Shown: positions 1,457 through 34,402 of the stretch, piece after piece | How the letters are laid out: each line of letters opens with the position of its first letter | Numbering within the stretch: the first letter of the stretch is position 1 | From: Welwitschia mirabilis | Lineage: Eukaryota | Length of the DNA stretch: 34,402 bases | Direction: 5' to 3' | NCBI GenBank assembly: GCA_051453625.1 | Contig: JBOZIK010000001.1 | Location: forward strand, 634,476 to 668,877 | Notes under the pieces: model-generated | Told to the model about the DNA's origin: nothing | What the model saw: only the letters and a program-made list of their open reading frames with translations | The model's database searches: none | Translations under genes and position numbers: made by a program

Positions 1457-2715
1457 ACATTAAGAAAATTGGTTCCTTCACTAATGTTATTGTTGTTACT
1501 TTTGTTTTAAGTAATCACATATTTGGGTTTGAGGAGATTGAATTTTTTGAAGAATCATCTAAGTAATTTTATCAGCTTAAATTTCTATAACCCACTTGAC
1601 AATTTTAATAATCAAAGTTTCTACTTCCATATGATTAGCTTCTTATTTTGCAACATTTCTAACATCCTATCTAATACATTCTACATTTTTTCTTGCTTTT
1701 TTTTTAGCTAGAACTGAAAAAAATAGTTTTTACATTCTTTAAAAAGTTAGATCCATAAACATTGTTAAGGAATTTTAGAATCAGTATAGATCTAGAGAGT
1801 TTAGAGTAGTCAATTTTGGAAATAGCTCCCGTGAGATTGTTAAAATAAAAAAGTTTAAAACCATTGAGTTTTACCTTTAGAGAGGCTTTACAAGATGAAA
1901 TAGTGATGAAGTAAGCTTTTTGAAATTTTTTGTTAACTACAGATTAAATTTTCTCAAACTAGGCTTGCATGGCTTCTTTTGTTAAGAATCCTCAATAGAA
2001 AGCTATGGGGGTTTAACTCAAATACTATGAATAATGAGACCCTCTATGAGAAATAAATGAAGTTTTTTCTTAAAATGAGTAACTTGAGTAGTAGCATAAA
2101 GATTATTAGAGTAATCTTTGGTAGAGTTAATGATGAGAGCTTTCAGAGGAGAAGAAATATTTATAGGAGATGTAGAAGTAAATCTTACATTCTTCACTTT
2201 TTAAAGATCTACTTTTTAGATATTAAATTTGGCCCTATAGATTGCACTCTTACAAAAGATTATGAGCAATATCCTTTTAATCATGAGCATTAATCTCTTA
2301 ATGACTAGAATTGCTTTATCATTGTTAAGATGTTTATGTGTATATCCTTTTATGGGAGTTTATGTTAAAAAAAAAAAAGATGAACTACAAGGAAGGTTTA
2401 GCTATGGGGCCTTAAGCTTAATATTGAGTAAAGGGGCTTGAAGAGCTAGGGCTATTGGATATAAAACCCTAGGCCCCTAATGAATTAGAAGAATAACTAA
2501 ACTAATCCTAAAACATTTGAGATGTGATAGTATATAATCTTCTTCAAAGGTGAGAAAACATTTTAGGACTTAAAAAATTTACAAGGATTACATACTACAA
2601 TGAAGATAATAAAAATAGAACACTAAAAATAGTAAAATTAAATTCAAAGAAAAAGAATATAGAAAACACAAACTAGCAAAAATCTCTTTTGGGGAGTTAC
2701 TCCCCTCATTAGCAT
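1457..2715 (-). repeat. Inverted copy of the unclassified two-ORF repeat (hairpin block plus 5' part of ORF-A)
   Basis: Reverse complement aligns by eye with ~3862-5030, e.g. GCTCATGATTA(A/G)AAGGATATTG and CTTTGAAGAAGATT(A/T)TA. Both copies encode KVKLNGFKL (1851-1877 minus; 4619-4645 plus). Confidence 0.85.
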
Positions 2716-2759
2716 GGTTTTACAAAGCACTTGTATCTTTATCTTTGCACCCACATCTA

Positions 2760-3445
2760 TCATTTCAAGCTTTTAAATATTTCTTCAATAAAATTCTAGC
2801 ATCTAATAGATCAACTCTTTTTTACAGTATTCATTATAGCATTTGGAAGAAGAAAGGAACCCCTCTTATTTTCAAAATAAATTTTAGTCCTTTAATGAAA
2901 TCTTATAACATGGAATAAATCCAAATCCTATACATTATAGGCTTTAATGATAATATATCATGCTTATCTTAGTTATTCCAAGTATAATAATGTGCTATTA
3001 TAATCCTCATAAACTTGAAAATCTCATCATAATAGTTAATTTCATAGAGGTTCCAATTTAATCAGAGCAGTTAGGAGATCCTAGCCTTTCCCACATCTAA
3101 TTTTTATATTATGTTTTCTAGTTTCCTAAGTTAAGAATTTGAAATTTTAATTTTCTTTCCCTTTATTTAAGCCTCTTTTTATGGTTATACCTAAGACATT
3201 TTCTCTTATTTAAAGGATTGATCCTCTTGATGTATTTGAAGATTCAAGACTTAGAAATTCAAATGGATGCTAATGAGGGGTGTACTTTCCTAAAAGTTCT
3301 TTATGTTACTTTTTGTTTTCTTTATTTTTTTCTTGGAATTCATTTTTATTGTTTCTAGTATTTTTTTTTTCCTATCTTTATTGTAGTACTGGATCCTTGT
3401 AAATTTTTTAAGTCTTAATATTTTTAGGTCCTAAAGAAATTTTAA
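2760..3445 (+). repeat. Direct copy 1 of the shared block (5' end of ORF-B on minus plus hairpin region)
   Basis: Aligns with ~7045-7710 (GCATTTGGAAGAAGAAAGGAACCCCTCTTATTTTCAAAA vs GCATCTGAAAGACGAAAGGGAATCCCCTTTATTTTCAAAA) and with ~3480-3960. Confidence 0.85.
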
Positions 3446-3479
3446 GTTCTAAATCCTAAATCCTAAAATCTAAACTTTT

Positions 3480-3960
3480 AAGGATAAATCCTATACTTTC
3501 TAGGTTTTATTAATAATATCTTGTGTTTAGTTATTATAGATTCAATAATTTGCTGGTGCAATCCTCCTAAACTGAGAAAGCTTCATGGTCGATTTCACAA
3601 AGATCCTAGTTTGATCAATGTAGTTAGAAGATCTTATCCTTTTCCACACCCATGTTTTAATTTGTTACATAAGGCATTATATAATTATATCTTTATATTT
3701 TTATATTTATGTTTTTTATTTCATAAGTTGGAAATTTATGATTTTAATTTTCCCTCTTTTCTTTAGGCATCTTTTCCTACCCAAAGTTAGGGTGTGCTCT
3801 TCTATTTAAAGAACTAATATCCTTGATGAATTCCAATATTTCAAATTTAAAAATCCAAAAGCATGCTAATGAGGGGTTCAACTCCTCAAAATAACTTTGT
3901 TATACTTTGTGTTTTGTTTATTCCTTTTCTTAGAATTCATTTTTTAAGTCCTAAAATTTT
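3480..3960 (+). repeat. Direct copy 2 of the shared block, tandem with copy 1 and continuing into ORF-A
   Basis: Shares TTAGTTATT...AATAAT(T/G)TGCT...AATCCTC, GTTAG(G/A)AGATC and ATGCTAATGAGGGG with copies 1 and 3. GAGGGG motif at 3275 vs 3871. Confidence 0.85.
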
Positions 3961-3972
3961 TTTCTCTTCATT

Positions 3973-6000
3973 ATGTCTTTGAAGAAGATTTTAGACTATC
4001 ATGTCTTACATCTTTTAAGACTAGTTTGGTTACATATTATACCTGATGGTCATGGTTCTTCAAGTTTGCCTACTCAACCTTAAGCTTAAGGTCCCATACC
4101 TTAGTATTCTTGTAAATCATGTCTTCTTATTTAACATAGTCCCTTGTATAAGGAGATCCATAGAAACATCTTAAAGATGAAGAAGTAATGTATAATCATC
4201 TAGAGACTCCTGCTCATGATTAGAAGGATATTGGTCATAACCTTTTGTAGGAACATAGTCAATTAGAGAGCCAACATCAACATCTAGAAGTAAAGCTCCA
4301 TAACATGAAGAATGCAATATTTACTCTGGTACCTTCTATTAATATTCATCCTTCTTTGGAAGATCTCACTACTAACTCTATAAAAGGTTACTTTGATAAT
4401 ATTTATGCTACTATCACTCATTTTAAAAAAAACTTCATTATGTTCTTATAGAGGATCTCATTATTCATAATCTTTAGATTAAACCCCAAAATATTTTTAT
4501 TGATAATCCTCAAACTAATGAAAACATGCAAGTTAAGTTTGCTAAAAATTAGTGTGAAGCCAATTAGAAAATTTTATAGGATTACTTCACCACTATATCA
4601 TCTTATAAATATTCTATAAAGGTCAAACTTAATGGTTTCAAACTTTCTTGTTCTCAAGAAAGATGTTTTCAATATTAACCACTTCAAACTCTTTGGATCT
4701 ATAGCTATTCTATAATCTCTACTAAATGACTATGAGTTTAAGCTTTTTAAAGAATGCAAAATTATTTTTTATAGTGATAGATTAAATAGGAAGGTAAAAA
4801 AATGTAGAATCTATTAAATGGAATGCCAAAAACATTGTAGAATAATAAGTTGGTCAGATGGACATAGAATCTTTGGTTACGTAAATTATCAAGTAGGCTT
4901 AGAAGATCAAGCTAAAAAAATTACCTAGAAGGATCTCTAGAAAATTCAATATCCTTAGTCTCAAATACATGATTTCTCTAAACAAAAGCAATAGAAACAA
5001 TAACATCAATAAAGGAATCAATCTTTACAACAAGGCTAACATTCTAAATTTGCTTCTCAAACTAGCCACTAATTATAACGTTGATACTAAACACAATAAG
5101 TAGCAGATTGAAATAGTAATCATTACAGATGATAGTAGCAAATCTATTTTGAGTTAAATAAATAGAACTCATTCTATAATAACTCCTATAAATAAAATCC
5201 AACTTCCTTTAAACCATCCGTATCTAATGCTTATAGATGATTTGGAGAAGTAGCAAATCAAGGCCATCAACAGACATCACAAAATACTTGATCTACTTCA
5301 TAATCAAATACCTTTAATAAACATTCTACTTCATATGAATGGATAAATCCTTCTTCTGACTAAGCATAAATTTTTGGGATTCTATCATATGCATCCCTTT
5401 CTTCTCCCTAGTCGTTTTTCAAAGAAAGAAAATCTCTCAAGTAGAAAATAAAATTTCTAATTTGTCCATCCATAATATTTGTTTTTATTCTTTATTATGA
5501 TGAGAAAATTCTCCTTGGATATGTTCTTAAATACATTCCTGAATTCCCTCCTATGATCCTTTACCTTATGATGGATGAATTCAAAGTATTGGCTAGATGT
5601 CTTTATTTCCATGCATTTTTTGATGTTAAATCTAATTAGCTAAAAAATTCTAATCCCTTCCTTTATGCTATTTGTATTACTTGAATGAAGCTTTTACTTC
5701 AAAGTCCTTAGAATGCCCTAGCTACAAGTTCAACCCTTACCTTAAAAGAAGCATTAACCACTATCATGGTACACTTCTCTTTTCTCTCAGTTCTTTTTGA
5801 AAATTAATCATCCATCCCTAGTTACCACCTTTTGGAATGCTTAAAATGACTTTAGAGAGATGACTTTATCATAATAAGGCTAGTAGATAAAAACTTTGTG
5901 ATTGTTTTTCTTAACACCTCATAGTATATCACAGGATCTTGGAGGCAATGTTTAGATGTAAATGTTTACTAGCCAGTTGAGAAGACCCCTTGGAATCTTT
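3973..6000 (+). pseudogene. Decayed ORF-A of unknown function
   Basis: Coding-like reading broken by stops and frameshifts (KHLKDEEVMYNHLETPAHD...; DYFTTISSYKYSIKVKLNGFKL). The inverted copy reads AYFITISSCKASLKVKLNGFKL with synonymous third-position differences. May be more than one ORF; 3' limit approximate. Confidence 0.55.
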
Positions 6001-6149
6001 TGCATTTCAAGATTTTTTTTTTTTTAATCTTTTTTACTATTTTTCTCCTATTCTTTGATAGTTTAGAGATGTTATTCTTTAGGTATTATTTAATAAATCT
6101 CATGCTTGTGATTTTTATCTCATATCTAGAATCCACAAACCTAGTTTGA

Positions 6150-7361
6150 TTAGCCATCTTATTTGTAGCTACTTTGGGTATATTCTAGAATTAACCTATT
6201 AGCTCCTTTATTATTTACTCTCTTCCATCCTATTTTATCAATTCATTCATTTCATAGACTTAGTTTTTCTGATTATGAATATCATTGTTCTATCCATCCT
6301 ATAAGATCCATTCCTTTTCACCTTTGATGTGGAATTCGTATATTTCATTATTCCCATTAAAGAAAGCCTTTTTGCTATTAAATCTATGGTTCAAGAGTAT
6401 TTTATTTTGCATTCTTATCCTATTTAGAATGTTTATTATGAGATCATTATTTTTTTATTTTCTCTTATCCTCAAAGAAAACTATCTTGATCTCAACAGTA
6501 ATTTGTTTAATAAGTTCGTAGTACTATTATGAGTAGTAATTTTGTAGTAATATATGCTTACCTAGTCTTTTATTACCTAAAGAACCAAGTTTTTTCTAGT
6601 TTGAATAAAAATTTTTTTATGTACTATAAGTGATACATTGATGATTCCTTTAGTATTTAATCAAGTTCTTTGGATTCCTTATCAATGTTTTTGAAGAGTT
6701 TCAATTCCATATATCCTAGCATTTACATTACTCCTACAATATCCCAAGAGTATGTTAACATTTTAGATGTTATTTTATTCAAAGATTCTACCTTTGGTTA
6801 CATAGGAATTTTATCTATTAAATGTTAATAGAAACCATTAAAATCCTATCAATACATCTCTTTATCCTCATGGAATCTAGCTAATCAAAATAAGTCCTTA
6901 GTGATTTCATAACTTCATAGATACTTTAGTATAAAAATCTAACCTTTGGAACTACTCGTGACTAAAGTGCAACTTGTATATTTTCCTTTGTACTCATGAA
7001 TACTCTTTCAAGTCTGTTTTTCATTCCTTTAGCAAAATTTTAGCATTTGATAGATTATCTCTTCTTCATAATATTCATGATAGCATCTGAAAGACGAAAG
7101 GGAATCCCCTTTATTTTCAAAAAGGATTATAGTCCTTTAACAAGATTCTATAACATGGGAATAATCCTAAACCATATCCTTCCTAGGCTTCACCAGTAAG
7201 ATCCTATGCTAATCTTAGTTATTTTATATCCAATAATTTGCTAGCTTAATCCTCTTAAACTTGAAAAATCTTATTACACATAGCTAATTTCATAGAGAAT
7301 CTAGCTTAATCTGAGTAGTTAGGAGATCTTAGTCTTTCTCATTCCCATGCTTTTCATCCAT
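6150..7361 (-). pseudogene. Decayed ORF-B of unknown function, convergent with ORF-A
   Basis: Minus-strand reading from a candidate ATG at 7361. Segment PML*NLVKGL*SFLKIKGIPF is matched by SML*DFIKGLKFILKIRGVPF in copy 1, with conservative substitutions. Confidence 0.5.
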
Positions 7362-7710
7362 TACATGGGGTTTTGCCTAATTTTTAATCTTTTATTTCTT
7401 ATTTCTCAAGTTGAAAATTTGAAATTTTAATTTTCCTACCCTTTATTTAGACCTCTTTTCCCATCCATAGTTAGATTGTCCTCTTCTCTTTAAAAGATTA
7501 AACTCCTTAATGTATTTTAAGATTCAAAATTTAGAAATCCCAAAGTATACTAATAAGGGGTGTAACTCCCTATACGATCTTTATGCTACTTTGTGTTTTC
7601 TTTATTCCTTTTTTTGAAATTTGTTTATACTCTCTTCAGTGTTCTATTTTTCTTATCTTTATTGTAGCATGATATTTTTGTAAATTTTTTAGACCCTAAA
7701 AATTTTTACA
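7045..7710 (+). repeat. Direct copy 3 of the shared block
   Basis: Aligns with 2760-3445 and 3480-3960; hairpin motif AAGGGGTGTAACTCCCT at 7555-7571. Confidence 0.85.
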
Positions 7711-7739
7711 TCATAATTTTTTTTAAATATTATTGATTG

Positions 7740-8015
7740 AAAGAAACTTCTAGTAATATTTAACCTTACTGTTACAATAAATCTTATTGACATTAAAGAC
7801 AACATAGGAAACAACTAAAGGAAAAATAATATAAATTTTAGTTAAATGGTCTCATTTGGAAAAATAAACAATAAATTAGATATAATTATTTAAATTTATT
7901 TGTAAATAATGATGAAAACTAATGAAATATTAACTAATATAGAGGAGCACAATGAGGATGAATATTTTGAAGCTAAACCGAGCCAAGAACAAGATGCTTC
8001 CATGGAAGAACCATA
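7740..8015 (+). pseudogene. C-terminal remnant of a chromovirus (Ty3/gypsy) integrase: chromodomain-like segment and acidic tail
   Basis: LVKWSHLEK from 7838 resembles the chromodomain YLVKW motif. Reading ends IEEHNEDEYFEAKPSQEQDASMEEP* just upstream of a PPT. Confidence 0.5.
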
Positions 8016-8051: not shown

Positions 8052-10235
8052 TGTGACAATCCTAAAATATTATCTTTAAACTATTATCATTTGTTTAAAA
8101 TAATTGTAATTTGTTAAAACTATAATGGATAATGTAATAATCATTCAAGGGGTATGGCCCTTACAACAGAGTCATCTTAAAGAGTTACATTATTTCATCA
8201 ACTTTACATGAATTATTTGGAAAATAAATGGGCATGCATGTGATTTTAATAGGTTAATATTAAGTCCTTAATAATTTTGCATGATTTCATAGTAGTTTCA
8301 TAGACTTGGCCTTGAAGGTAGTATGACCTTGCTGAGCCACCATACCAAAACCTTAAATTTGATATTGATTCAGCTATCAGTCTCATTTTGAAATCCCTTA
8401 TGATATAAATATGAGTTATCTATTACTTTTTTTATTACATTTTACTTATTTTAATAATAAAGCCATCATTTATCTATTTTTATCCTTTCCAAATTGCATA
8501 CCCATTTTATCATTAAATCTTTGTGATCTTAATTTTATAAATAAAATGAGAGTATTACATCATGGCTCATGGGTTTCATTAGTCACTATTTTGATTTAGA
8601 ATAAATAATTTAATTTTACTGGCCAAAAATTCTATTAGTTTATTTCTTCGTTTCAAAAGAAAAATCACAAACTGGGCCCTATTATTCTATTGTTTGTGGC
8701 TTAAAGCTTTTTATTTCTTTGAAATTCAAGATCATCTCCTTTCTCTTTTCTTGTAAAGTCCATTACTCAAACATAATAACGTGGCTAAATTATATTAATT
8801 ATATAATTAATTAAAAGAAGATAATTATAATAACATCCATTAATTAGCTAAATCCATATTAGTTCATGAATCATAACTTATGGTGTCTTGAGTTCATGGA
8901 ACCTTGGGAAATATGGTAATTTTAGGAGAAATTGCTACAACCTGTGGCCTATGATTCTATTGCTTTAGTTTATATTTTAAGGATAGCACTTTTTATATTC
9001 ATGTTCATCAATTAATTTCAACATACTTAGAGAAAAACTTTATATCTAAAGTAAGTTGGGACTCATAACGAAACTATAATGCATGGCTTATTATCATTTC
9101 TTACAATATCAGTCCTTATTTATAGTTCATCATAGTCCATAACCCACAGCTGCCTACTCTTCTTTAATTATCTATATTTCAAGATGCTGGTTCATGACTT
9201 ATGGCTTGTAGGCTGGGTTGATGAACATCAACTTTCATGAAGAATTGTCACAGCCTAAGATGTAGTCTAATTTTTATTTTCTTAAAGTATTGAGGTTCTT
9301 CTAGTTACCATTGGTAGCTCTTCTATCTTACACTATGCATTAGCTTATTAAAATATGGTTATCAATTAATTACTATATGGTAACTATGGTAACTTTATAG
9401 ATAATTTAGATTTACATTAATTCATGGCTTGCAGTATTTCACTGGAGATTGTAATCTCTTAAAGAAGCTATCATAGCCCCCAACGTATGACATTTAAAAA
9501 CAAATACTAGCTTTGGAAAAATAACTATAAGCCTTACGTCTATAGTTCTTTTCTTATGACATAAGTTCTAAATTTTTTGGGTTGGTGGCTCTTTATTTTA
9601 GATTTAGTTCTTTAGTTAAAGTTCCTATGGCTCACATCTTAGTTTATAATAGCTTGAATCCCATGGCATTATGTGATAGCCTTATACCATAGATTTATCT
9701 TCTATGAGTTTTCATTACCATAACATTTTCATCATGATCCTCATTTTAGAATTACTTGGTATAGTTTAGAACATGGATTTTCAGTCATGGGCTTTTAGAT
9801 TGTATTTCTTTCAACCAGAACATCTCTTTTAAAAATATTTCAAAAATCACACTAACCATCATAATTCATCTTGTATAATATGAAGATTAATAAAAGATTT
9901 TATTTACCAATGTTGCAGTGTGAATTTATGCAATGTTTCATGCCTTGATTTAAATCCTGTTAATTACAAATAAGATGCACAAATATANNNNNNNNNNNNN
10001 NNNNNNNNNNNNNNNNNNNNNNNNNNNNNNNNNNNNNNNNNNNNNNNNNNNNNNNNNNNNNNNNNNNNNNNNNNNNNNNNNNNNNNNTAATTGTGTTTTC
10101 TAATTATTTTAAATCTTATAATGTGTTAATAGAGTTTAAATAGGATTTGATCCTAGGTTCCGTTATGCATGATAGTTAATAACTATATAAAAAAATATTA
10201 TGGTTAATTATGGTAATTAAAGCTGGGGTGTTATA
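8052..10235 (+). mobile_element. 3' LTR of a Tekay/Del-like chromovirus (spans an assembly gap)
   Basis: Starts TGTGACAATCCTAAAAT after a PPT and ends GGGGTGTTATA (cf. typical GGGGTGTTACA). Internal CAACTTTCATGAAGAA motif. ~8545-9910 is repeated at ~14102-15625. Continuity across the gap is assumed. Confidence 0.65.
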
Positions 10236-10238
10236 CAT

Positions 10239-13200
10239 CATCTACTTGATTAGTTTTTGGCCCTCAATCTTGTATTAATTCCTTAGTGGAAAAAATCAAA
10301 ATACTCATAAACTGGACTAGTATGCGTTACATACTACTATTCCTAAGGACTTATCTTTCAATGTAGTTATATAAGAAGTTTTAAAATAATTAAAAATAAA
10401 TAATATTACATACTTCCAAGTGTTTGAATTAAAATCTTAGATTAAATAGTTCTTAAAAAATTAGCATGTATTTAAGAATCAACAAATTGAAAGCCTACCT
10501 GAGGATAACCTTCTCATAGAATCATTTAATTCCTAGTGTTCAACTTAATTCCTAGGCATGAGCTATATTTAAAACATCAACTCTCTCAAAATTCATTCGA
10601 AAGATTCATTGAAATTAATGAATAACTTTGTTTTGAAAATAATGTGATCAATTTGTCTAAAGATGTAGAAAATCCAAGGGAGATGATAATTAGTATTCCC
10701 TACCTTATCGTCTTTGCTAACATTTTCTTAAATTGTTCTAGAATTATACTAATATTTTTACATTATCTTACAAAGAGCTAATAAATTTTAATGCAAAAGT
10801 CATAATCCATAAAATTCCCTTGAAATTAGAGATGTAGCCTTATATTCAAAAGTGTAGAGCTATAAATCCTAAATTAAAGCTTACTATGTATCAAGAGTTT
10901 AAAATACTAATTCAACATGGAATTTTTTATGTAATTGATACATCACATGGTTAAGAAATCTTTTACTTGTATTAAAGAATAATTATATTAGTGATCATAT
11001 TAATTTTTGGAATTTAAACCAAGCCTTTATAAGATAGCAATATCCGCTACCTCAGATAGATCTTATCACTTAGCATGCATCTGCTATGGGATTTATTATT
11101 TTTGGATGTATTTTTTAGATATAATTAGATCCTAACTAGTAAAGATGATCATAGTCAAATTGGTATCACCACTAAATGGGGTAATTTTTTCTTCAAGAAA
11201 ACGCCTTTAGATTTATCTAATGCCTAAGAAACTTTTCAAAGAGCCATGAATAAATCTTTCATAGGAATAATTGATAATTTTGTGATTGTTTATTTAGATG
11301 ATATTATGTATACTCCAAGAAAGGTTTAGATAATTTTAAGCACTTGTAAGTGATATTTTATAATTATAAAAATTTTAAGATACTATTAAACCCAAAAAAA
11401 TAGTATTCTATGTCTTGAAGCTGGTGTTATTTTAGGATATTGTGTTTTAAGATTTTGGGTCATAATTAATCCTATGTACATAAAATTAATTAAATAATTA
11501 GAGTTTTTAATCTTTAAGAAAGATTTAAGGTATTTATTTGGGAAGATCAACTTTTTTAAAATGCTTATTCTTAAATGATTTTTTTGAAACATTTATTCTT
11601 AGATTTACAAAAGTAACCACATCTTTGCAAAAAAATGTTGAAGCAAGATTAAGATGTTAAAAGGACATCTTAGGCACAACAAGTTTTCATTACTATTATT
11701 AAATCTATTATAAATTTCCTAATCTTATCACCACTCGATTTCCATAACGATTTCTTTCTTTATTCTTTTTCTTCTCATGATTCAATTGCATCCATATTAA
11801 TTCATAAGATAGACCAACAAAATCTTGCTATTTTTTTCTTTCACATCATATTAGATGATGCTTAATTATAGTACATTAAATTAAATAGGCATGCTTATGA
11901 ATTTGTCAAGGCTATTAAGTATTTCAAATATTACATCTATTTGAATGGATTCTACTTAGTTGTTTTTTATCATATGATCAAATAAATGCTAGTGAAGCTA
12001 AACTGTCTTTAAAGAAATCTTCATGACTGACTAAATTATAATAGTTTAATTTTACAATTATAATTAATAAGATTATTAAATCACTTATCTCAACATAATG
12101 TTTGACTTGTAAAAACCTAGAGGTATGTCATAATTAGTAGTAGATCGTAGAAAAAGGCTGTTAGGATTAGGATTGTACCATTATTTGAAAATGAAAAATT
12201 TACCAACTTTTACAAATATTTAAACAAAAATATATTTCTTATAGAACTTAAACAAATTTAAAATCATCAATGATGTTTTTATTATAATTTTTATAGAGGT
12301 GCTCATTGCAACTAGAAGTATGGGATGTTTTGAATTAGTTTCATGTCATTAAGAAATATATTATGAGAACCCACTAGTAATGACCAATGATATTACTAGG
12401 AAATAATATTAATGGCCTATAATTCATGAATATTATATGAATATAATCTAAGGATGTTATAAATGCCCAACTCATACTCCTAAGTTATCCAAAGCAATAG
12501 CCTTACTAAAGCTAGGTTTTAAATCTACCCCTTTTAACACAAGGATATTAGACATTGTTGGCATGATTCATCCACTTTATTCTAAGCCCATAAGTTTATC
12601 ATAATTTTAATTGATTATTTTACTAAATGGTTAAAGTAAGTAATCTCAAACATTATACAACTAAAGAGTTAATTTCATTTCTTAAAGAATTCATTTTAAC
12701 TTAATTTGGAATCCTAGAGATATTAGTTTATGATAATGGCCCAGCTTTTATTTTTGCTTAATTTATTAATTAGGCAAATAAACATAAGATCATCATTAGA
12801 AATTTATCTAATTATTACCCTCAAGATAATGGTTTAGCATAATCCACAAATAAAAATATTAAAGCTACCTTAAGAATATGTATAGAAGAAAACCATCATG
12901 ATTAGCACAACTAGCTCAAGTTTGCTCTTTGGGCTAATGGGATTCGCTCTAGAAAAGATATAAAATCATTAAATTTTAAACTAGTTTACATAGTGGAAGC
13001 TAAAATTTCCTTAGATATACATAGGATTTAACATAAGGTTTTAGTTAATTCTTCATTAAACCTTGCAACAAGAATGGGTTGTATTACATAAGCTAACTAC
13101 AAAAGAAATTTACTAAAAGTAGTGTGAATTTTAACTAAGTATAAAGAAAACATGGACTATCTCCTTTAAGCCAAGGAATTTAGTTAGGTTTTATAATCAT

Positions 13201-13352
13201 AAAAGGGTGAAAAAAATGGTGAATTTTATCTTTAATGGCTAGGAATTTATTTTTTTAAAAAGATTTTTAGTTTAGCTACATATCAATTGGTTAATACATT
13301 AGGGCATGTTATGGGATACCACTATACTATGCTCCATTTAAAATGATATTAT
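10239..13352 (+). pseudogene. pol: Decayed Tat-type Ty3/gypsy pol: aRH C-terminus, RT, RNase H, integrase
   Basis: HKIPLK...QKCRAINPKLK; NFWNLNQA; YPLPQID; TTKWG; TFQRAM; VYLDD (YLDD 11291-11302). RH DFFLYSFSSHDSIASIL...AYEFVKAIKYF. INT IDYFTKW, VYDNGPAF, SNYYPQDNGLA, ALWA. Many stops and frameshifts. Confidence 0.92.
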
Positions 13353-13625
13353 CATAGCCCTAACTAAGGGTATCCCTTATTAAAGAACTATAAATAGTGT
13401 ATAGTTTTCTATTTTTATTTGAAATTAGTTTATTTTTCTATTTTGGTATATAATCCATTGCTAACAATTGTAGTTATACTAGTATTATAAGAGAAGAAAA
13501 TACCATTCTTTGCTTATGAAGTATATTTTGAATTTTATATGGAGAAGATGGATAACATCCATCATCTAAAATAATTTATGAGAGTTTATTTTCCTTTTAG
13601 TAGAAATACTAATAGTGCACTTTAT

Positions 13626-14101
13626 AAGTGGGTGGACTAAATGTTGGCATCCATGAATGTTTCATAATGGACCTATGCATTTCCATATCCTAGTTTTATG
13701 AAGATCGCCATATAATCACCTCACCTCTACCTATATAATATTTACCTATGAACTAGTTAGAATAAGAATAGGTACTAGTTAAAAAGCAATGTACTCAAAA
13801 TATAAAAGGTAGAGAAAAAATAAATGTCCTCCATCTAGCCCCTCCTTCATTTTCTACTTCTATAAATAAAGGAATAATTACTTCTTCATGTGATCCATCT
13901 TTAAAAATTGTTATGGCTATTAATAAAATAAAATTGGAGATACAAAAATAGCTAGTGTACATTAGTAACATCCTCTATTAAGAAATTGAATACAATGTGA
14001 TAGCGGACATCTAAAGACTCAAGTAGATTTACTCTTACTTTCCTTTCTACTCTCTTTATTAGTAATTTATACATTTCTTTTTATGTTTTCCTAGGTATAA
14101 A
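13626..14101 (+). mobile_element. PPT and probable 3' LTR of the Tat element
   Basis: AAGTGGGTGGACTAAA followed by TGTTGGCATCC at 13642, ~280 bp after the integrase end. CTATAAATA at ~13860. Right end inferred from where homology to the chromovirus LTR begins. Confidence 0.5.
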
Positions 14102-15625
14102 ATGTTATTACATTATAAGGCTCATCACTCCCAATAGATTCGTAATAGGTTAATAGATAAAATATTATGCTTTTTCAATGGGTCCTTCTTCATGCCTCAT
14201 AGCTCGCGAGTTCTAAATGATCAAAACTAATCTCTATGCACTTTAGTATATTAGTCCCATTAGCTATCATTTTGATTTAGAATAAGTTAAATTTATTAGT
14301 CAAACATATATAAGTTAATTTATTCCTCTTAAATAAAAAATCACAAACCAGACCCTTATTTTATGATTCATAACTTGTGGTGTTTCCTTTTTTTAAAAGA
14401 CAAGATCATATTCTTTCTCTTTTCTTGAGAAGGCTATCACTTAAATATAATGATTTTATTAGATTATATTAAAAATTTAATTACTTAAAACAAAAGAATA
14501 AGAATAAAATCTATTACTAGGCTAAGAGCATATTAGATCATGAATCATAGCTTGCAACATTCTAAGGTTACAACACCTTAATAAATATGTTAGCTTTTAA
14601 GAGAAATTGTCGTGACTAGCTTGTGATTCTATTTATTCAGTCTGGATTCTAAATTTTTTTTTTAATTTTTAACCCATATCCTTCTAAAAACACTCTCTAT
14701 ATTCATAATCATTGATCAATTTTGATAGCTTTAAATAAAAACATTATATCTAAAGTAAGTTTGACCCACAACAAAACTACAACATACGTCCTGTAATGCT
14801 CACCTATAATATCAATTCTTATAAATATTTTACTATGACCCATAAACTATGGCCTACGACTCTACTTTTATGGCTTACATTTTAATATGCTAGCTCATGA
14901 CTTAACACTTGCAGTCTTTGTTAAAGGATGTTAACTTTCAAGAAGAATTGTTATGATCCATGACTATAGCCACATTTTTTCCCCTTAAAGTGCTAAGTTA
15001 TTTTAGTTAAGATTGAAAATCCTTTCACTTTACACTATGCATTAGCCTATTAAAATATAGTTACCAATTAATTAATACATGATAGCCATGATAAGTGTAT
15101 AGATAATTTGGCTCCAAATCAATTTGTATCACATAGTATTTCACTAGGGACTTTGGGCTCTCAAAGAAACTATTATGGCTTATAGCCTATATTATTTAAA
15201 TATAAATACTAGTTGCGAGAAAATGACTATAATCCTATCATATGTATTTTTTTCCTTATAACTTGAGTTCCAAGGTTTCATGACTTGTAGCTCTTTATTT
15301 TATTTTTACTTCTTTATTTGAAGTTATAATGGCCTGAATCTATAATATATATTTTATTTTTATGGCTTGTAGCTCATCATATTACATCATAGCCTTATAT
15401 CTCAGGTTTATCTTGCATGGATTTTCATTGCTACAACATTTCTATTGTAGCCCTTATTCTACACTTATCTAGTATAGCTTTGATCATGGATCTTCACTTG
15501 TGGATCACTAGATTATGTTTCTTTCAATGTGGTTACCTCTTCTATAAATATTTTAAAAATTTTTTACTAGCCATAAGTCATCATGCATCATATATAGAAC
15601 AATAAAAAATCCTAATTAGTAACTA
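14102..15625 (+). repeat. Diverged second copy of the chromovirus LTR interior
   Basis: Collinear with ~8545-9910: ATTTTGATTTAGAATAA, AAAAATCACAAAC, TTATATCTAAAGTAAGTT, CTTACACTATGCATTAGC vs TTTACACTATGCATTAGC, AGTATTTCACT. Confidence 0.85.
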
Positions 15626-25468: not shown

Positions 25469-26857
25469 TATAGGATCGAGAACCTTGGAAATGTAGGGCG
25501 ATGAATAGGTTTCTAAAAATATTCAAATAACTTCATAGTATCAACTTGCTTGAAATGAATCACTAAAAACTTGGAAAATAAAAATAAAACTATTATAAAA
25601 ATATAAAATGATAGAAAACACAAAAATACCCATCAAAAGCACACAATATTTATAGTGATTTAAGAAAACCCCCTCCTCCACTCTTGACAATTAGCTTCTA
25701 TCTAAGCCTGGTCTAGATCTCTATTAATCTCTTCTAGGTATTGCAGGTTTATCTATAGCCTTTACAAATGGACTTTTTCCAAAGGCTTAGTCTCAACCTT
25801 TTGCAAGAAAATATAGTACTAATGATAGTATGTCCAAATGCATAGGTATCACTTGATCTTTGGCTTAATGAAAGTATTGAAATGCTTCTCCTAAAGATGA
25901 TATAATTTAGAAATAAGAGGTGCTATAGATCTGACCATGTATGCAAAGATATCATAGTTTTTTATTCATCTTTAGTTAGGAATACAATGCTAAATGAGTA
26001 CCATGATAAATCCACAAGATTCAAAAGTTTGATAAAATATGTAATGGTGATTTGATTCTTGGCTATATATAGTAGAAGACTTTTAAGGTTTTTACAAGTG
26101 AAAAAACTCTTCTAATAATCATAAAACATATACATAGTGGCTATAAAATTTTCATTTCCATCATGACTAGTTGATTATTCAAATATTTAGTTAACTCCTC
26201 TTGATGCTGTCACTTAAATCAGTCGTGCTTGTGTTTTTTGGTCGATTCAGTTCTTATCGCTTCATGTCTAGTTGATTCCTCATGATCCAATCGACCACTT
26301 ATCTAGTTGCCTACATATTTATCTAGTTGTCTGCTTAGTCTAGATAAAATCCATTATAGTTTTTCTACTCTAGATTTGATCAACCTCTCATAAATCTGGT
26401 CAATTTTTTATTGATCGACTGTGAAGTATTGATGCTCAGTTCTCAAGTTCGATCAATCCCTTAGATGTCTAGTCTATCCCTTGATGATTGTCTAGGAAGT
26501 ATTGGGTGCATAGTGCTTAGGTCTTATCAACTCTTAGATGTCTGGTCAACCCCTTGATAATTAGTTTAGAAGTACCAGTGCTAAGGTTCATAAGTCTAAT
26601 GGATCCCTAAAATGTCTAGTTAACCCCTCTAAAATTGATTCATTTCTAAGTATTCACTTTAAATGTGGTCGACCCCTTAGAAGTATTGTTAACCCCTCAA
26701 GGGAGTAAAAAACTTGACAAGTTTCAAGATCAAAATGTGACTAATATTGTGTTATCTTCTAACTTATAAGTGATCAATATTTTTTGCACAAATTACAACA
26801 AATTTATGTACATAGAAAACATTAGTTTAACATCAATTAGTAAATAATATTTTAACA
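25469..26857 (-). mobile_element. 3' LTR (~1.39 kb) of a minus-strand Sirevirus-like copia
   Basis: On minus: PPT AAAGGGGGATAT, then TGTTAAAATATTATTTACTAATTGATGTTAAACTAATGTTTTC, ending CCTATTCATCGCCC...GGTTCTCGATCCTATA. Homologous to 27503-28967. Confidence 0.85.
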
Positions 26858-27338
26858 ATATCCCCCTTTGACATTGATGATAAAAGTTTTTTAGTAGTTG
26901 AGGATATTAGATTTGGAAAATCTCCTCCTTACAAAATGCTTATTAACTTTTGCAAAAATATTAAACATTTTATATTAAGTAAGACATTTTAAAAGTTCTC
27001 AAATTGTGACAATATTTAAAAACAATTTGAAGTGCTAAAATATATATGATAGACAACATTTTGATTATGAATTATTAAATAATAATAAGATATACTAGTA
27101 ATTAGAGTTCATAGTAAAAATAAATGTGCACTAAAACATTTGAGATACAAATTATAAAACATGAAAACAAGTGAATTTCTATTACTAAAAAATAAACATT
27201 ACAATGAAAAGTACTCATTAAGACTAGATACATCTGAAATAAACATAAATAGCTAACTAATTATTTTCCTTTTAATATCAATAATAAAGAAGAGAAGAAA
27301 CATAAGCATGAAAGAAAAACATAAACATAGAAAGAGAC
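26858..27338 (-). mobile_element. Pre-LTR region with multiple PPT-like motifs of the minus-strand element
   Basis: Purine tracts at ~26858-26869, ~26919-26931 and a decayed one at ~27260-27275. Collinear with ~33560-34074. Confidence 0.75.
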
Positions 27339-27502: not shown

Positions 27503-28967
27503 TATTGGATTATGTTTTGCCAATTGATGTTAAACTAATGTTTTATCTATAGCAAATTTTGTGTTTTTTTTGCAAAAGATGTTAAATTACTTATAGGTTT
27601 AAAGATATAACTTAAATACTAAATTTCTGAGATTATAATCCTATTAGTTTATTTACCTTCCAGATGGGGGGTCGGCCACACCTGAAGCAGATAGAAAATA
27701 AACTGCATCTAGAGGGGTTGACTGGATTTTTAATGGGATTGACCAGACCTATAACCTCGAGAAGGAGTGTCCCTAAACTAAATGGAAAGCGGACTAGAAC
27801 TATATGAGGTTGATCAGATTTGAGAACCTAATAAATAGTATCCTGATACTAAATAACAATGGGTCGAATTGACTTATGATGAGGCCAACTAGACCTAAGC
27901 ACTATGTAGTTGATACACCTAAGCTGATTATCATGAGGTCGACCAAACCTATAATGGGATCTACCGGACTCAATGCAAGAAACTAGAAATAAATTCTATT
28001 AAAAGAGCAGGTGACTAAATGAATAGTAAGTAACCAGACTGGGGTCAACTGGACCCACATGGGGTTAAGCAGACAAGAAGCCAGAAGAAATTAGAGCAAC
28101 CAAATTTCTCACTCAGGTGACCTATGTAACTTATAGCACCACATGGGGTCGACCAGATTTTTGTGAAGTCGACCAGACAGAGTAGAAATAAAATTTTTCT
28201 AAATGTTATGTATCTATTATGTAGCTGTTAGATAGCCATTTATGGCCTGGGGAACGTATTTCAAATGTACTAAACTCTAAAAGCCTTCTAATAGCTAAGC
28301 CATAGATAATAAAGGCATCCTTTTTGTAATCATTCTCATTTTGATCAAATCTATTGGATCTGAAGGATCAAGTATTGGATTTTTATATGATTATCAATTT
28401 TGTATCTTAGCATCCTTATATTTGACTGAAGGAGATATACTATTGACATACTCTCTACATTCAAGGTCAGATCTAGAGTTCAATTGTTTTACTACTATAG
28501 AACAAGAGCTCCATCAAATGTGCTGATTCTAGAATGAGTGATATCTATGCTTTCGAGGCATCATTTCATCACTATGCTATTATCTAAAGGTTAAGACTAA
28601 GCCTTGAAAAGTCCATTCAAAAGGTTGAAACTAAGCCTGGAAAAGTCCATTTTATAAAGGTTATAGGTAAACCTGGAATATCTAATGAAAAAGTAACGAA
28701 GATTTAAGATCTAGCTTGGGGCTAGGCTGATCATCAAGAGTGGAGTAGGGGATTTTTCAAACCACTATAAATCCAACTTGCATAAAATTGGTATTTTTAT
28801 GCTTTCAAGTTTTTATTTTCTTAATTTCATTATTTTCACATGTTGTGCACTTTCTAGATTAGTTTACTTTTATATGCAATTTTTATTAGATTAGATTGAT
28901 TTAGAATATTATGTTGAATTTTTTTAAGAACCTATTCATCCACCCTCTAGGGTTCTTCATCCTATCA
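27503..28967 (+). repeat. 5' LTR (1465 bp)
   Basis: Start matches 34075 onward; ends CCTATCA before the PBS. C-rich CCTATTCATCCACCCTCTAG at 28931-28950 resembles the Sirevirus LTR-end motif. Array of GGTCGACC-type palindromes. Confidence 0.9.
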
Positions 28968-29932: not shown

Positions 29933-32900
29933 AGCTAGTATCTTAATAGTGGATGTTCAAGTCACATGATAGAAGATAAATCCAGATTCCAAAAACTAAG
30001 CCACTTTGATGGAGGAGAAGTGACTTTCATGGATAGTGGAAGAGCAAAAATAGAAGGAATTGGAAGCATTGATGAAGGTAACATTCCTAGAATTAATGAA
30101 GTTTTGTATGTAAGTGGTTTAAAGAATAATTTACTAAGCATTAGTCAAATTTTTAACAAAGGTCACAAGATAGTTTTTAATAAATTAAAATGTGAAATTT
30201 TGCATAGAAAATCAAATGATGTGATTCTTAGAGCTAGTCGAATAGATAATGTTTATAGCATAGATCAATCATTTTTTGCATGTTATTTTTCGAATGTTCC
30301 TCAAGAAAAGTTGTGGCATAAACATCTAGGTCATGTTAATTATGATCAATTAAAAATGATTATTCATAATAACATTGTTAAATAAATTCCTAAGATAAAT
30401 ATAAAAAAACAATATTTGTGTGATGCATGTCAAAAGGGAAAACAAATCAGGACCTCTGATAAAATAAAAATTCAAGCTTCCACATCTATGCCATTAGAGC
30501 CTATTCATATGGATTTAATAGGCCTTGCTCAAACTCAAAGTCTAGGTAGTAAATGTTNNNNNNNNNNNNNNNNNNNNNNNNNNNNNNNNNNNNNNNNNNN
30601 NNNNNNNNNNNNNNNNNNNNNNNNNNNNNNNNNNNNNNNNNNNNNNNNNNNNNNNNNNNNNNNNNNNNNNNNNNNNNNNNNNNNNNNNNNNNNNNNNNNN
30701 NNNNNNNNNNNNNNNNNNNNNNNNNNNNNNNNNNNNNNNNNNNNNNNNNNNNNNNNNNNNNNNNNNNNNNNNNNNNNNNNNNNNNNNNNNNNNNNNNNNN
30801 NNNNNNNNNNNNNNNNNNNNNNNNNNNNNNNNNNNNNNNNNNNNNNNNNNNNNNNNNNNNNNNNNNNNNNNNNNNNNNNNNNNNNNNNNNNNNNNNNNNN
30901 NNNNNNNNNNNNNNNNNNNNNNNNNNNNNNNNNNNNNNNNNNNNNNNNNNNNNNNNNNNNNNNNNNNNNNNNNNNNNNNNNNNNNNNNNNNNNNNNNNNN
31001 NNNNNNNNNNNNNNNNNNNNNNNNNNNNNNNNNNNNNNNNNNNNNNNNNNNNNNNNNNNNNNNNNNNNNNNNNNNNNNNNNNNNNNNNNNNNNNNNNNNN
31101 NNNNNNNNNNNNNNNNNNNNNNNNNNNNNNNNNNNNNNNNNNNNNNNNNNNNNNNNNNNNNNNNNNNNNNNNNNNNNNNNNNNNNNNNNNNNNNNNNNNN
31201 NNNNNNNNNNNNNNNNNNNNNNNNNNNNNNNNNNNNNNNNNNNNNNNNNNNNNNNNNNNNNNNNNNNNNNNNNNNNNNNNNNNNNNNNNNNNNNNNNNNN
31301 NNNNNNNNNNNNNNNNNNNNNNNNNNNNNNNNNNNNNNNNNNNNNNNNNNNNNNNNNNNNNNNNNNNNNNNNNNNNNNNNNNNNNNNNNNNNNNNNNNNN
31401 NNNNNNNNNNNNNNNNNNNNNNNNNNNNNNNNNNNNNNNNNNNNNNNNNNNNNNNNNNNNNNNNGAAAGTAAATGCTATATGCTAAAATATAAAGAATAC
31501 TTAAGCAAATTTGAATCAAAAGAAGATGAAGTTATCTTCTTAGGTTATTCAACTAGAAGTAGAGCCTATTGTGTTTTTAACAAAATAAGCTTAATAGTTG
31601 AAGAATCAATAAATGTGCAAATTAATGATATTGACATAAAAACAAATTACACAATTAAGGAGGAGGCCATAACCATAAGTATTCCCATAACCAATGAAGG
31701 CTCTACTGAAATAAATGAAGTTCAAATAAAAGAAGGAACACCAAAAAAGCCCAAAATTCTTAAGATCATCCTTTAGAATCCATTATTAGAGAAGTAAACT
31801 CAAAAATAAAGATAAGAGGTTCTATGAAAATTTTATGTGCTCATGTTTCTTATGTCTTGAAGATAGAGCTCAAGAAATTTGAAGAAGTAGAAATTCATGA
31901 AGAATGAATGATGGAAATGCAAGATGAGCTACAACAATTCAAATAAAAACGATATTTGAAAGCTAGTAGAAAGGCCAAAAGATAAGAATATCATTGGACC
32001 TAAATGAATATTTAAGAAAAAATGTGATGAAAAAATAATGTCATTAAAAACAAAGCAAGATTAGTAGCTTAAGACTACAATCAAATAAAGGCCATTGATG
32101 TAGGAGATAATTTTGCAAGAGATACTTTTACTCTTGTTGCAAGGTTGAATAGCATTAGAATGTTTTTGTCTTTTATAGCTTTTAATAATTTCAAAGTGTA
32201 TCAAATGAATGTAAAAGTGCTTTTCTAAATGACACATTAATTAAAGAAAACTATGTAGAACAACCATAATGTTTTATTGATCCTCATAAAACTAATCATT
32301 TATATAGACTTAAGAAAGAATTAAATGAATTAAAACAAGCACTAAGAGCTTAGTATGAAAAGCTAGCTACATTTTTAAATGAAAATGGATATATTCAAGG
32401 AACTATAGATAAAACTTTATTTGTAAAGAATATGAAAAATGATTCCATTATTATACAAATTTATGTAGATGATATTATCTTTAGTGCCTCATGAAAAGCT
32501 ATCAAAAGAATTTGCAAATATCATGATAAAAAAATTTGAAATGAGTATGCTCGATGAAGTTAAGATGTTTCTTGAACTTCAAATCAAGAAAAGTAAAGAT
32601 GAAATATTTTTTCTCAATCAAAATATGCAAGAAATTTAATTAAATAATTTGGTTTAGAAAATCCAAAAACAACTGACACTCCTATGTCTACATCATATAA
32701 AGTAAGTTTAGATGAAAAAGGTAAACCAGTAGATCAAAAACTTTACAGAAATATGATTAGTAGCTTATTATATCTAACTATAAGTAGACAAGATATCATG
32801 TTTAGTGTTGGCATTTGTGTAAGATATCAATCCCAACTAAAAGAATGACATCTTCAAGTAGTGAAACATATAATTAAGTATGTAAAAGATACATGTGATC

Positions 32901-33590: not shown

Positions 33591-34074
33591 AAAAAAGGGA
33601 GAATTAGTTGGTTGTTTGTTACATATTTATTTTATTGTTTGTTACATATTTATGCATAAAATTATTTGTTAAATATTCATGCACAAAATGGTATTTCATT
33701 TGGTATCTTAAAACTATTTGTGCTTTTTCAAATCGTATATGCTAACAATATTTTTCCTTTGACAATATAAGTGATAAACTAGAAAAGTTTAGAGTCTTTT
33801 TAACATTTAGAAATAAATCATCATTTCTGACATCTGATTTAATGTTAAATATGTGTTTATGATCACATTATGTCTATTATAAAGTTGTGCCTTTTTAAAC
33901 TATCATATTAAATTATTTCATTTAGAGCATAAAATTTTTTGTTCAAAATACTTTCACTTTTTTTAAATTAGAATATTATTTTGCAAATAGGCATTTTGTA
34001 AGGGGGAGTTTTTCTATGAGTTGTAAGTTTATCACAACTAACTAGTATTTGCCATCAATGTTAAAGGAGGAGAT
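33591..34074 (+). other. Multiple polypurine tracts
   Basis: AAAAAAGGGAGAA (33591), AAGGGGGAG (34000), AAAGGAGGAGAT (34063-34074) abutting the LTR. Confidence 0.8.
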
Positions 34075-34402
34075 TATTAGATTATGTTTTATTAATTAAT
34101 GTCAAATTAATGTTTTCTGTGTAGTAAATTTTGTGTAATTTGTATAGAAAATGTTAAATTTTTTGCAGGTTGAAAGATAAAACTAAAATGATCAACTTCT
34201 AAGCTTAGAAACCTGTTAGTTCATTTACCCTTAAAATGGGGAATCAACTAGATTTTCAAGGGGTTAACCACACCTAAAGTAGACAAAAAATAAACTACAT
34301 CTAGAGGGGTCAACCAGATTTTTTGTAGAGTTCATGGTACCTATAACCTTAAGAACCAGTGTTCCTAAACCAAATGGAAAGGGGTTAACCGGACCTATAT
34401 AG
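34075..34402 (+). repeat. 3' LTR (partial)
   Basis: TATTAGATTATGTTTT... matches 27503; shared AAATAAACT(G/A)CATCTAGAGGGGT and ACCTATAACCT. Confidence 0.9.

Follow-up and report, generated by a model that had tools for sequence, protein, structure and literature searches.

Insertions of Penelope-like elements (PLEs) have pseudo-long terminal repeats (pseudo-LTRs) that arise when a tandem copy is partial, and in many cases an inverted copy adjoins them upstream (Craig et al. 2021, PMC8557442; what is taken, here and below, from papers cited by PMC number refers to the portions of their text that were available). Ahead of the core of the PLE reverse transcriptase (RT), GxKF/Y and DKG-type motifs are hallmarks (PMC8557442). 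In two groups, Athena and Coprina, there is no endonuclease (EN-minus), and a hammerhead ribozyme and reverse-complement telomeric repeats are present (PMC8557442). For the Coprina clade ‘DKN, RT 1-7 and thumb’ are given, DKN being conserved in Coprina-1_Alen, whose model has DKN, a coil-ORF1 (ORF, open reading frame), a nuclear localisation signal, thumb, flanking direct repeats and telomeric repeats (PMC13159263). Among plants Coprina is cited only from Selaginella, and from conifers only a horizontally acquired lineage with an endonuclease (EN+), Dryad, is reported (PMC8557442, PMC13159263). In the literature searched no description of Coprina-type PLEs in seed plants was found, and the clade appears to be undescribed there. 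The stretch considered here, 34,402 nt of Welwitschia mirabilis (assembly GCA_051453625.1, contig JBOZIK010000001.1, positions 634,476 to 668,877 of the forward strand; ‘the window’ below, its first letter being position 1), has at 1465–7716 what, to judge from its sequence, is very probably a composite, long-dead insertion of an EN-minus, Coprina-like PLE in AT-rich, CpG-depleted plant DNA. Mobile elements of this kind are ordinary, though little noted in seed plants.

The first line of evidence for this identification is the protein. An earlier account of the DNA made without database searches, the sequence-only reading, had an ORF-A on the plus strand and an ORF-B on the minus strand converging in a T-rich stretch near 6000–6150, and had recognised no RT motif. 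A full phmmer scan, for which the plus frame of 6250–7149 with stops as X was the query, collected a family of 729 proteins at E<=1e-3, 31 of them at <=1e-10 and the best at 1.1e-29. When 168 related proteins and 139 ORFs from relatives were laid onto the window with tblastn, every high-scoring segment pair was on the plus strand and none on the minus. Those of P0001 are collinear, with residues 7–33, 38–250, 241–378 and 379–515 on 5399–5479, 5490–6095, 6095–6514 and 6514–6924, and matches of P0004, P0169 and P0171 extend the homology to 7262. The T-rich stretch where two ORFs were thought to meet is inside this match, within its second and third segments, and LKIKGIPF, quoted for ORF-B, is just the reverse-complement reading of plus-strand KGIPFIFK (7101–7118), which matches the PLVFKL motif of relatives. 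Decay of the path is considerable, with 18 in-frame stops in 558 aligned codons and frames in the order 1,2,1,0,2 (at least four frame changes). Along it are a GxKF/Y-like LKYIPEFPP and a DKG-type VDKNF, then the RT motifs in order, YIDD at 6634–6645 among them (the others are in Table 1), the definitions of PLE motifs being those of papers (PMC8557442, PMC13159263) and not of aligned reference PLE sequences.

What are the nearest proteins? The closest relatives share G-L-x-F/Y-IP, IIKPADKNLG, LPKIHKP..GRPI, FDVESLYPSIP, GTAMGSNFAVVYAC, KRYIDD, ILDI, QK.LNAYQY and RLRARGYP. Pfam RVT_1 is found in 8 of 15 relatives, in three of them above the curated cut-off, and a profile of 22 relatives matched solved RTs in PDB (best 8bgj, 1.1e-05), telomerase RT coming in at E 0.13–0.16. 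Those with names are uncharacterised proteins of Cryptomeria japonica (63% identical to P0001), Ginkgo biloba, Selaginella moellendorffii and Closterium, with no angiosperm name among the best 120 matches listed. Summed tblastn scores against the window are 378 bits for Cryptomeria, 189–195 for Ginkgo, 132 for Selaginella and 99 for Closterium. As a side observation, PF28514 and PF26215 stand in the precomputed Pfam column for nearly all family members and were absent from a Pfam scan of P0001; they may already describe the domains that flank the RT of this family.

The layout of the locus is the second line of evidence. The sequence-only reading had one non-coding block recurring at ~3275, ~3871 and ~7555 on the plus strand and inverted at ~2700, with a period of 3684 bp between copies 2 and 3, and saw in this a head-to-tail arrangement of a decayed, once-coding mobile unit; repeat search and self-BLASTN bear out the block and the period, and the arrangement likewise stands. 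Aligned, the four block copies have a mean column identity of 76%, and the direct ones have start-to-start spacings of 596 and 3684 bp. The full unit, ~3.7 kb on the plus strand, runs from an upstream pseudo-LTR (T2) through ORF1 and ORF2 to the 3′ untranslated region (UTR) in the downstream pseudo-LTR, where there is one CCCTAAA unit at 7694–7700 and the unit ends at ~7716. T2, of which 3485–3937 matches 7168–7621 at E 8e-59 in self-BLASTN, has a hammerhead-like block at 3860–3905 and a TCCTAAA unit at 3949–3955, and continues straight into the body. The truncated tandem copy T1 is the last ~745 bp of the unit, namely the C-terminus of ORF2 (residues 550–592 of P0001 match at 2784–2912 in tblastn), the 3′ UTR and a hammerhead-like block at 3264–3308. 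Upstream of T1, and joined to it head-to-head at 2716–2728, is the inverted copy, in which a pseudo-LTR fragment with one TCCTAAAA unit (~2562–2569) and the 5′ 1.1 kb of the body are kept; in self-BLASTN its 2555–2715 is inverted against 7547–7707, 3267–3425 and 3857–3937. The pseudo-LTR feature of PLEs is present, T2 and T1 each repeating the 3′ end of the unit and the inverted copy adjoining T1, and by comparison with described insertions the 3684-bp head-to-tail period is the PLE pseudo-LTR arrangement. At the junction of T2 and body ~40 nt are lacking that are kept in the inverted copy and at both 3′ ends, a difference that recalls the variable 30–40-bp ‘tail’ described for PLE insertions (PMC8557442).

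Table 1. Features of the composite insertion, in window positions
Feature	Position	Strand	Basis and remarks
Inverted partial copy of 5′ body (ORF1 region)	1465..2578	-	Equivalent to 3939–5025; self-BLASTN 71% over 1135 nt, E 1e-151
Pseudo-LTR fragment of inverted copy, with hammerhead-like block	2555..2721	-	Core CTAATGA, the reverse complement of 2707–2713
T1, 5′-truncated tandem copy	2729..3434	+	Against 6972–7716: 71%, E 9e-103 (self-BLASTN); 76.3% in pairwise copy alignment
YYYTAAA tract, ~5 units	3440..3481	+	Between T1 3′ end and truncated 5′ end of next copy
T2, upstream pseudo-LTR of full unit	3485..3963	+	Equivalent to 7168–7647; 73.6% identity
Probable decayed ORF1 region (ORF-A of the sequence-only reading)	3977..5380	+	Weak profile match; position 5′ of ORF2
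Decayed ORF2, PLE-type RT	5399..7262	+	phmmer; collinear tblastn matches of P0001 and P0169
ORF2 motif NLSIHN	5459–5476	+	Read from aligned path
ORF2 motif LKYIPEFPP	5526–5552	+	Read from aligned path
ORF2 motif VDKNF (DKN)	5883–5897	+	Read from aligned path
ORF2 motif RIHKP	6128–6142	+	Read from aligned path
ORF2 motif FDVEF	6323–6337	+	Read from aligned path
ORF2 motif SSNFVV	6532–6549	+	Read from aligned path
ORF2 motif YIDD	6634–6645	+	Read from aligned path
ORF2 motif ILDVI	6760–6774	+	Read from aligned path
ORF2 motif GIPFIF	7101–7118	+	Read from aligned path
Downstream pseudo-LTR	7168..7716	+	ORF2 end, 3′ UTR, hammerhead-like block 7544–7588 (core CTAATAA 7550–7556)

Intact relatives give the third line. 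A set of 49 metagenome loci, found with an alignment of closer relatives and all oriented with the RT on the plus strand, has downstream of ORF2 in most of its members a sense-strand CTGANGA-helix-GAAA motif (pattern search), and a strict hammerhead descriptor is passed by the plus strand of 31 of the 49 and by the minus strand of none. Among 25 distinct hammerheads 96% of the cells in the helices are paired, 8 of 10 pairs vary on both sides, and none of 500 shuffles reaches as high; the core was fixed by the way the examples were selected, the helices were left free, and slid controls gave 29–39% paired. Helix III in these relatives is a palindromic tetranucleotide (CUAG, CAUG, UGCA or CCGG), as is the case for minimal PLE hammerheads acting as dimers, where helix III is palindromic (PMC4209133). 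Arrays of at least two CCCTAA or CCCTAAA units are on the sense strand in 21 of the 49 loci and on the G-strand in none, starting ~170–215 nt after the hammerhead in L011, L015 and L019. Since C-strand repeats of both the TTAGGG and the TTTAGGG type occur among the loci, the hosts of the family do not all have one telomere motif. Taken by analogy, the feature set of the relatives is that by which EN-minus PLEs are characterised. EN-minus PLEs with hammerheads are reported in Selaginella (PMC4209133), and Selaginella proteins are among the phmmer matches here. Two observations on single loci may be added. In L019, L024 and L027 there are arrays of ORF1, ORF2, hammerhead and telomeric repeats, then another ORF1/ORF2 on the same strand. 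In L037 (445–3171) the ORF upstream of the RT ORF has an RVT_2 (copia-type RT) match at E 1.1e-16, and probably belongs to a neighbour or a chimera, not to a PLE as its ORF1.

With the relatives in hand, what is the recurring block of the window? Its order is AGCATG, CTAATGA, GGGG-loop-CTCC(C), YAAAA, GATC, TTT and ATGCT, which in order and spacing is as in the relatives: 5′ strand of helix I, core, helix II, core, palindromic helix III, U-run and 3′ strand of helix I. Its place agrees as well, for it is ~290 nt past the end of ORF2 homology at 7262 (vs 126–1060 nt in relatives) and in each copy ~145 nt ahead of a CCCTAAA-like unit (vs the ~170–215 nt of the three loci just named). In all four copies the positions of the essential G5 and G12 read A, the G12 site being a former CpG and the G5 site CTG. 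If A is allowed at both, a majority sequence taken over the four copies satisfies the descriptor so relaxed, with a helix I of 6 bp, and none of 300 dinucleotide shuffles of the whole window contains a hit. There is a good case that the block is the relic of a hammerhead ribozyme inactivated by G-to-A change at G5 and G12. That all copies share the changes can be explained in two ways: the copy from which they derive had lost its activity beforehand, or the copies lost the same hypermutable sites independently.

The interval from the 3′ end of T1 at 3434 to the truncated start of the following copy at 3485 contains TTCTAAA TCCTAAA TCCTAAA ATCTAAA, within which TRF reports a period of 7 with 100% matches at 3449–3467. 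Three successive YYYTAAA with at most two mismatches give 6 matches in the window against 0.49 expected, a number that 0 of 100 shuffles reach, and four of the six overlap the tract. We infer that this is a spacer of the reverse-complement plant type, (CCCTAAA)n, which would have decayed by C-to-T change, between successively added copies. Whether the locus is a former chromosome end is about an even question, and no more than even because the tract is short and is in AT-rich DNA.

There remains ORF-A. It is probably a decayed ORF1, in the frame that the sequence-only reading gave, because it is 5′ of ORF2 as in relatives, for instance L007, whose ORF1 (~640 codons) and RT ORF2 overlap in different frames, and because the same weak profile region is found in both of its copies. 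The ORF1s of the loci are mutually related (37 of 39 long non-RT ORFs), and the two best window matches of a profile of those 37 are 4427–4543 on the plus strand and the equivalent 1982–2158, on the minus strand, of the inverted copy. They share one region of the profile, around ...HSLRIKPP..., and the frame is that of KVKLNGFKL. An N-terminal GIY-YIG in ORF-A, a candidate from reading 4190–4260, was unsupported by every search.

Is any trace of selection left in these sequences? The two ORF-A copies have 258 differences in 1064 aligned positions (75.8% identity), divided 76/86/96 over the codon positions (chi-square p = 0.31), and for the ORF2 C-terminus of the main unit and T1 the division is 30/26/24 (p = 0.71); with no bias by codon position, decay has been neutral. 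The identities of the copy pairs are 75.8, 76.3, 73.6 and 72.9%, transitions prevailing, and copies so equally diverged are therefore of about one age. The sequence-only reading had drawn attention to KVKLNGFKL, which differs between copies at three synonymous third positions. The pair is as it was quoted (4619–4645 and the reverse complement of 1855–1881), but the excess of third-position change that it seemed to stand for is absent from the two copies at large, and the three synonymous changes are a sampling accident. All the copies are neutral relics today. As to their surroundings, the whole window has 27% G+C and CpG at 0.15 of expectation, no open frame of at least 100 codons outside its N runs (1017 N in total, being assembly gaps at 568–577, ~9990–10090 and ~30390–31480), and reads as heavily deaminated, repeat-rich eukaryotic DNA.

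Several results weigh against what has been put forward, and they concern each part of it. The ORF1 matches are of 1.4 and 0.2 bits (E 0.039 and 0.089 in a search of six sequences), and tblastn of the ORF1s of relatives gave no match in 3977–5350. For the hammerhead, 0 of the 4 present-day copies pass the relaxed descriptor. The covariance model R1, built from relatives, gives the four sites at most 1.1 bits and has 22 weak matches elsewhere in the window, two of the sites searched alone having best scores of 0.4 and 1.1 bits. As present-day copies fail all models, the ribozyme reading needs two G-to-A reversals common to all of them. Nor do the curated collections recognise the element: Pfam found 0 families in six frames of 3850–7751 with X for stops, Rfam at E<=10 had three matches in the whole window, by chance and all outside the element, and even in intact loci, of which 20 of the 49 were scanned, Rfam had no hammerhead at gathering threshold. 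A tree of a 137-aa RT fragment put the window in a polytomy with four rows badly cut; in it P0001, P0175 and P0243 fill less than half of the columns, one matched stretch per protein was kept and no clade is drawn. The telomere-like tract, as said, is short in an AT-rich setting. Truncation at the 5′ end alone does not account for the inverted copy, whose 3′ part is missing from the window, no homology beyond its end at 1465 being found further in the window; perhaps that part was cut away by a later insertion or by the gap of 10 N at 568–577. (That gap is 0.9 kb upstream of the breakpoint of the inverted copy.) Finally, the assignment to a clade is by motifs and architecture, Coprina, Athena, Dryad and Chlamys having been compared by description, and GTAMGSNFAVVYAC, KPADKNLG, FTFDVESLYPSI and LPKIHK have 0 occurrences in the supplement of PMC8557442, as have the sub-strings RYIDD, PADKN and TAMGS and the word ‘Coprina’, in a file where sequences stop at 400 characters.

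What else could the element be? That it is a canonical EN+ PLE, for example a conifer Dryad of the Penelope/Poseidon group, with a C-terminal GIY-YIG decayed past recognition, we consider unlikely. Conifers are among the reported hosts of Dryad PLEs (Lin et al. 2016, as cited in PMC8557442), a C-terminal GIY-YIG is present in more distant relatives (P0049, and P0243 by precomputed PF01541), and as Pfam misses even the RT in the window copy, an endonuclease that is not seen proves little. However, the forms with GIY-YIG are the most distant by summed tblastn, at 57–64 bits vs the 378 of Cryptomeria, and from the end of ORF2 homology to the hammerhead-like block at 7544 there are the ~290 nt only. 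In the closest relatives the protein stops at a median of 97 residues past RGY, the GIY..YIG pattern follows RGY in 0 of 48 RT ORFs, and Pfam finds no GIY-YIG in 16 ORF1/ORF2 translations, seven of them ORF1s. The sense-strand telomeric repeats of the relatives are moreover an EN-minus hallmark (PMC8557442).

A similarly low chance attaches to membership of the Naiad/Chlamys group, notably the EN-minus, hammerhead-bearing ‘PLE-X’ of Chara, Selaginella and mosses, which may be more widely spread among early-diverging plants (PMC8557442); our matches do include Selaginella and a streptophyte alga, Closterium. The marks of that group are a CxC motif between the N-terminal region and GxKF/Y, and an N-terminal GIY-YIG or, in PLE-X, a CxCX1-8C extension. 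Of 27 relatives, 1 has the CxC, which is said to mark the whole group except Physarum_Pp1, in the 150 aa that precede the GxKF/Y-like motif, and GIY-YIG is in none of the seven ORF1s scanned with Pfam. N follows DK in 44 of 48 RT ORFs, whereas Chlamys is described as having DK without a conserved third residue, and PLE-X units are 5.2–7.4 kb, those of Selaginella being in 28S rDNA (PMC8557442), against a unit of 3.7 kb here. The absence of the family’s peptide motifs from the supplement of that paper points the same way weakly, its sequences being incomplete.

A retrotransposon of LTR or DIRS type, bounded by true terminal repeats, is very improbable: direct repeats of ~450–550 bp do flank an RT-coding body, and a decayed LTR retrotransposon does lie close by, but the 3′ repeat starts within ORF2 (at 7168) and T1 corresponds to a start (at 6972) 290 nt before the homology of ORF2 ends at 7262, there is the head-to-head junction with an inverted copy, DKN and GxKF/Y-like motifs are present N-terminally in the RT, and in the relatives of the RT family that were scanned Pfam finds no integrase, RNase H, protease or tyrosine-recombinase domain. 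In not assigning the repeat to an LTR, CACTA or MULE element the sequence-only reading was right. Its own suggestion, that a small circular replicon resembling a virus or plasmid, with its gene pair ambisense, had been integrated as a concatemer, or else that a cargo module of a larger DNA transposon had been amplified, has hardly any chance left, for despite head-to-tail copies at a fixed period, and neither that reading having recognised an integrase, transposase or Rep nor Pfam a domain in six frames, ORF1 and ORF2 are both on the plus strand, ORF2 is an RT with hundreds of relatives in a family of Penelope-like layout, no search gave a Rep or capsid match, and the PLE pseudo-LTR layout accounts for the repeats.

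For the EN-minus, Coprina-like PLE that we prefer, how would copies have come to stand one behind another? As judged from the literature, and extended to the window copy, the element would be transcribed from the pseudo-LTR, and a minimal type-I hammerhead in the repeat would cut the RNA. A reverse-complement telomeric repeat near the 3′ end of that RNA could then anneal to the G-rich overhang of a chromosome end, whose 3′-OH the element’s RT would extend; with priming from that 3′-OH an endonuclease is not required. Telomerase would re-cap the new end, to which the next copy could attach. A mechanism of this sort, in which the RNA anneals to a telomere that is unprotected and the 3′-OH there serves as primer, has already been proposed (PMC13159263). 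PLE RNA cut by hammerheads may also circularise and template complementary DNA of more than unit length (Cervera and de la Peña 2014, PMC4209133), and through such proposed circles the ‘circular replicon’ idea perhaps persists as a faint echo.

A wider picture can be drawn, tentatively, and we would rather bet against it than for it: a vertically inherited clade of telomere-attaching PLEs without endonuclease, of the green lineage (Closterium, Selaginella, Ginkgo, Cryptomeria and the genome of the window), once extended the termini of seed-plant chromosomes by one copy upon another, and the locus is a fossil chromosome end, now internal, whose array of copy, short telomeric spacer and copy has since decayed through cytosine deamination. 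Should the Coprina-like character be confirmed, gymnosperm-type genomes would join the hosts of telomere-attaching PLEs, and internalised copies with telomere-like spacers could mark, in plant genomes that are giant and evolve slowly, where chromosomes ended or fused in the distant past. In any event a previously unclassified repeat becomes classifiable; in DNA so deaminated Pfam and Rfam are blind, and it is a full phmmer scan together with intact relatives that resolves it. The minimal hammerheads of those metagenome relatives, which covary and are linked to telomeric repeats, are in themselves a clean set.

Other repeats are in the neighbourhood. At 8577–15618 on the plus strand is a second decayed retroelement, with direct repeats at 8577–9906 and 14258–15618 (67.7% over 1374 nt, E 9e-128) and in its body an RT_RNaseH_2 match above cut-off at ~11668–11952 (E 2.1e-07, 31.3 bits). 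It looks like an LTR retrotransposon of the Ty3/gypsy type, its LTRs diverged about as much as the PLE copies. Self-BLASTN further gives inverted pairs at 25581–25803 / 28618–28836 (72%), and at 26540–26944 / 33986–34394 and 27503–27792 / 34075–34384 (69–72%).

How the element stands to known systems can now be said. Plant retrozymes are alike in having hammerheads inside the direct repeats of a plant retroelement, and differ in being non-coding, non-autonomous, LTR-type and of 600–1000 nt, as far as the sources available describe them, where the unit of the window encodes its own RT. The canonical EN+ PLEs (Penelope/Poseidon including Dryad, Neptune and Nematis) have in common with it pseudo-LTRs, an adjacent inverted copy, 5′ truncation and a unit of 3–4 kb, and with its intact relatives minimal hammerheads of type I in which helix III is palindromic (PMC4209133). 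They are set apart by a C-terminal GIY-YIG with CCHH and by insertion genome-wide, GIY-YIG not having been found in the close members of the window family. Athena shares with the intact relatives the lack of an endonuclease, an ORF1 beside the RT ORF, telomeric repeats with hammerheads and attachment to chromosome ends (PMC8557442, PMC13159263), but is rotifer-specific and basal (PMC8557442), while the hosts here are of the green lineage. The nearest is Coprina, examples of which are Coprina-1_Alen of Ascochyta lentis and Repbase Sm1/Sm2 of Selaginella moellendorffii. It is typically of one ORF (PMC13159263), the relatives of the window element having two in a comparison made by description, and the copy in the window is dead, interstitial as far as the window shows, and in a seed-plant-like host with nearest named relatives in Cryptomeria and Ginkgo. 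For the rest the likeness is extensive: a DKN RT with RT1–7 and thumb, an upstream ORF1 and direct repeats that are short and flank the unit, and, clearly in the intact relatives and putatively in the window, no GIY-YIG, a hammerhead as part of the repeat, telomeric repeats in reverse complement on the 3′ side and telomeric spacers between copies (PMC13159263, PMC8557442, PMC4209133).

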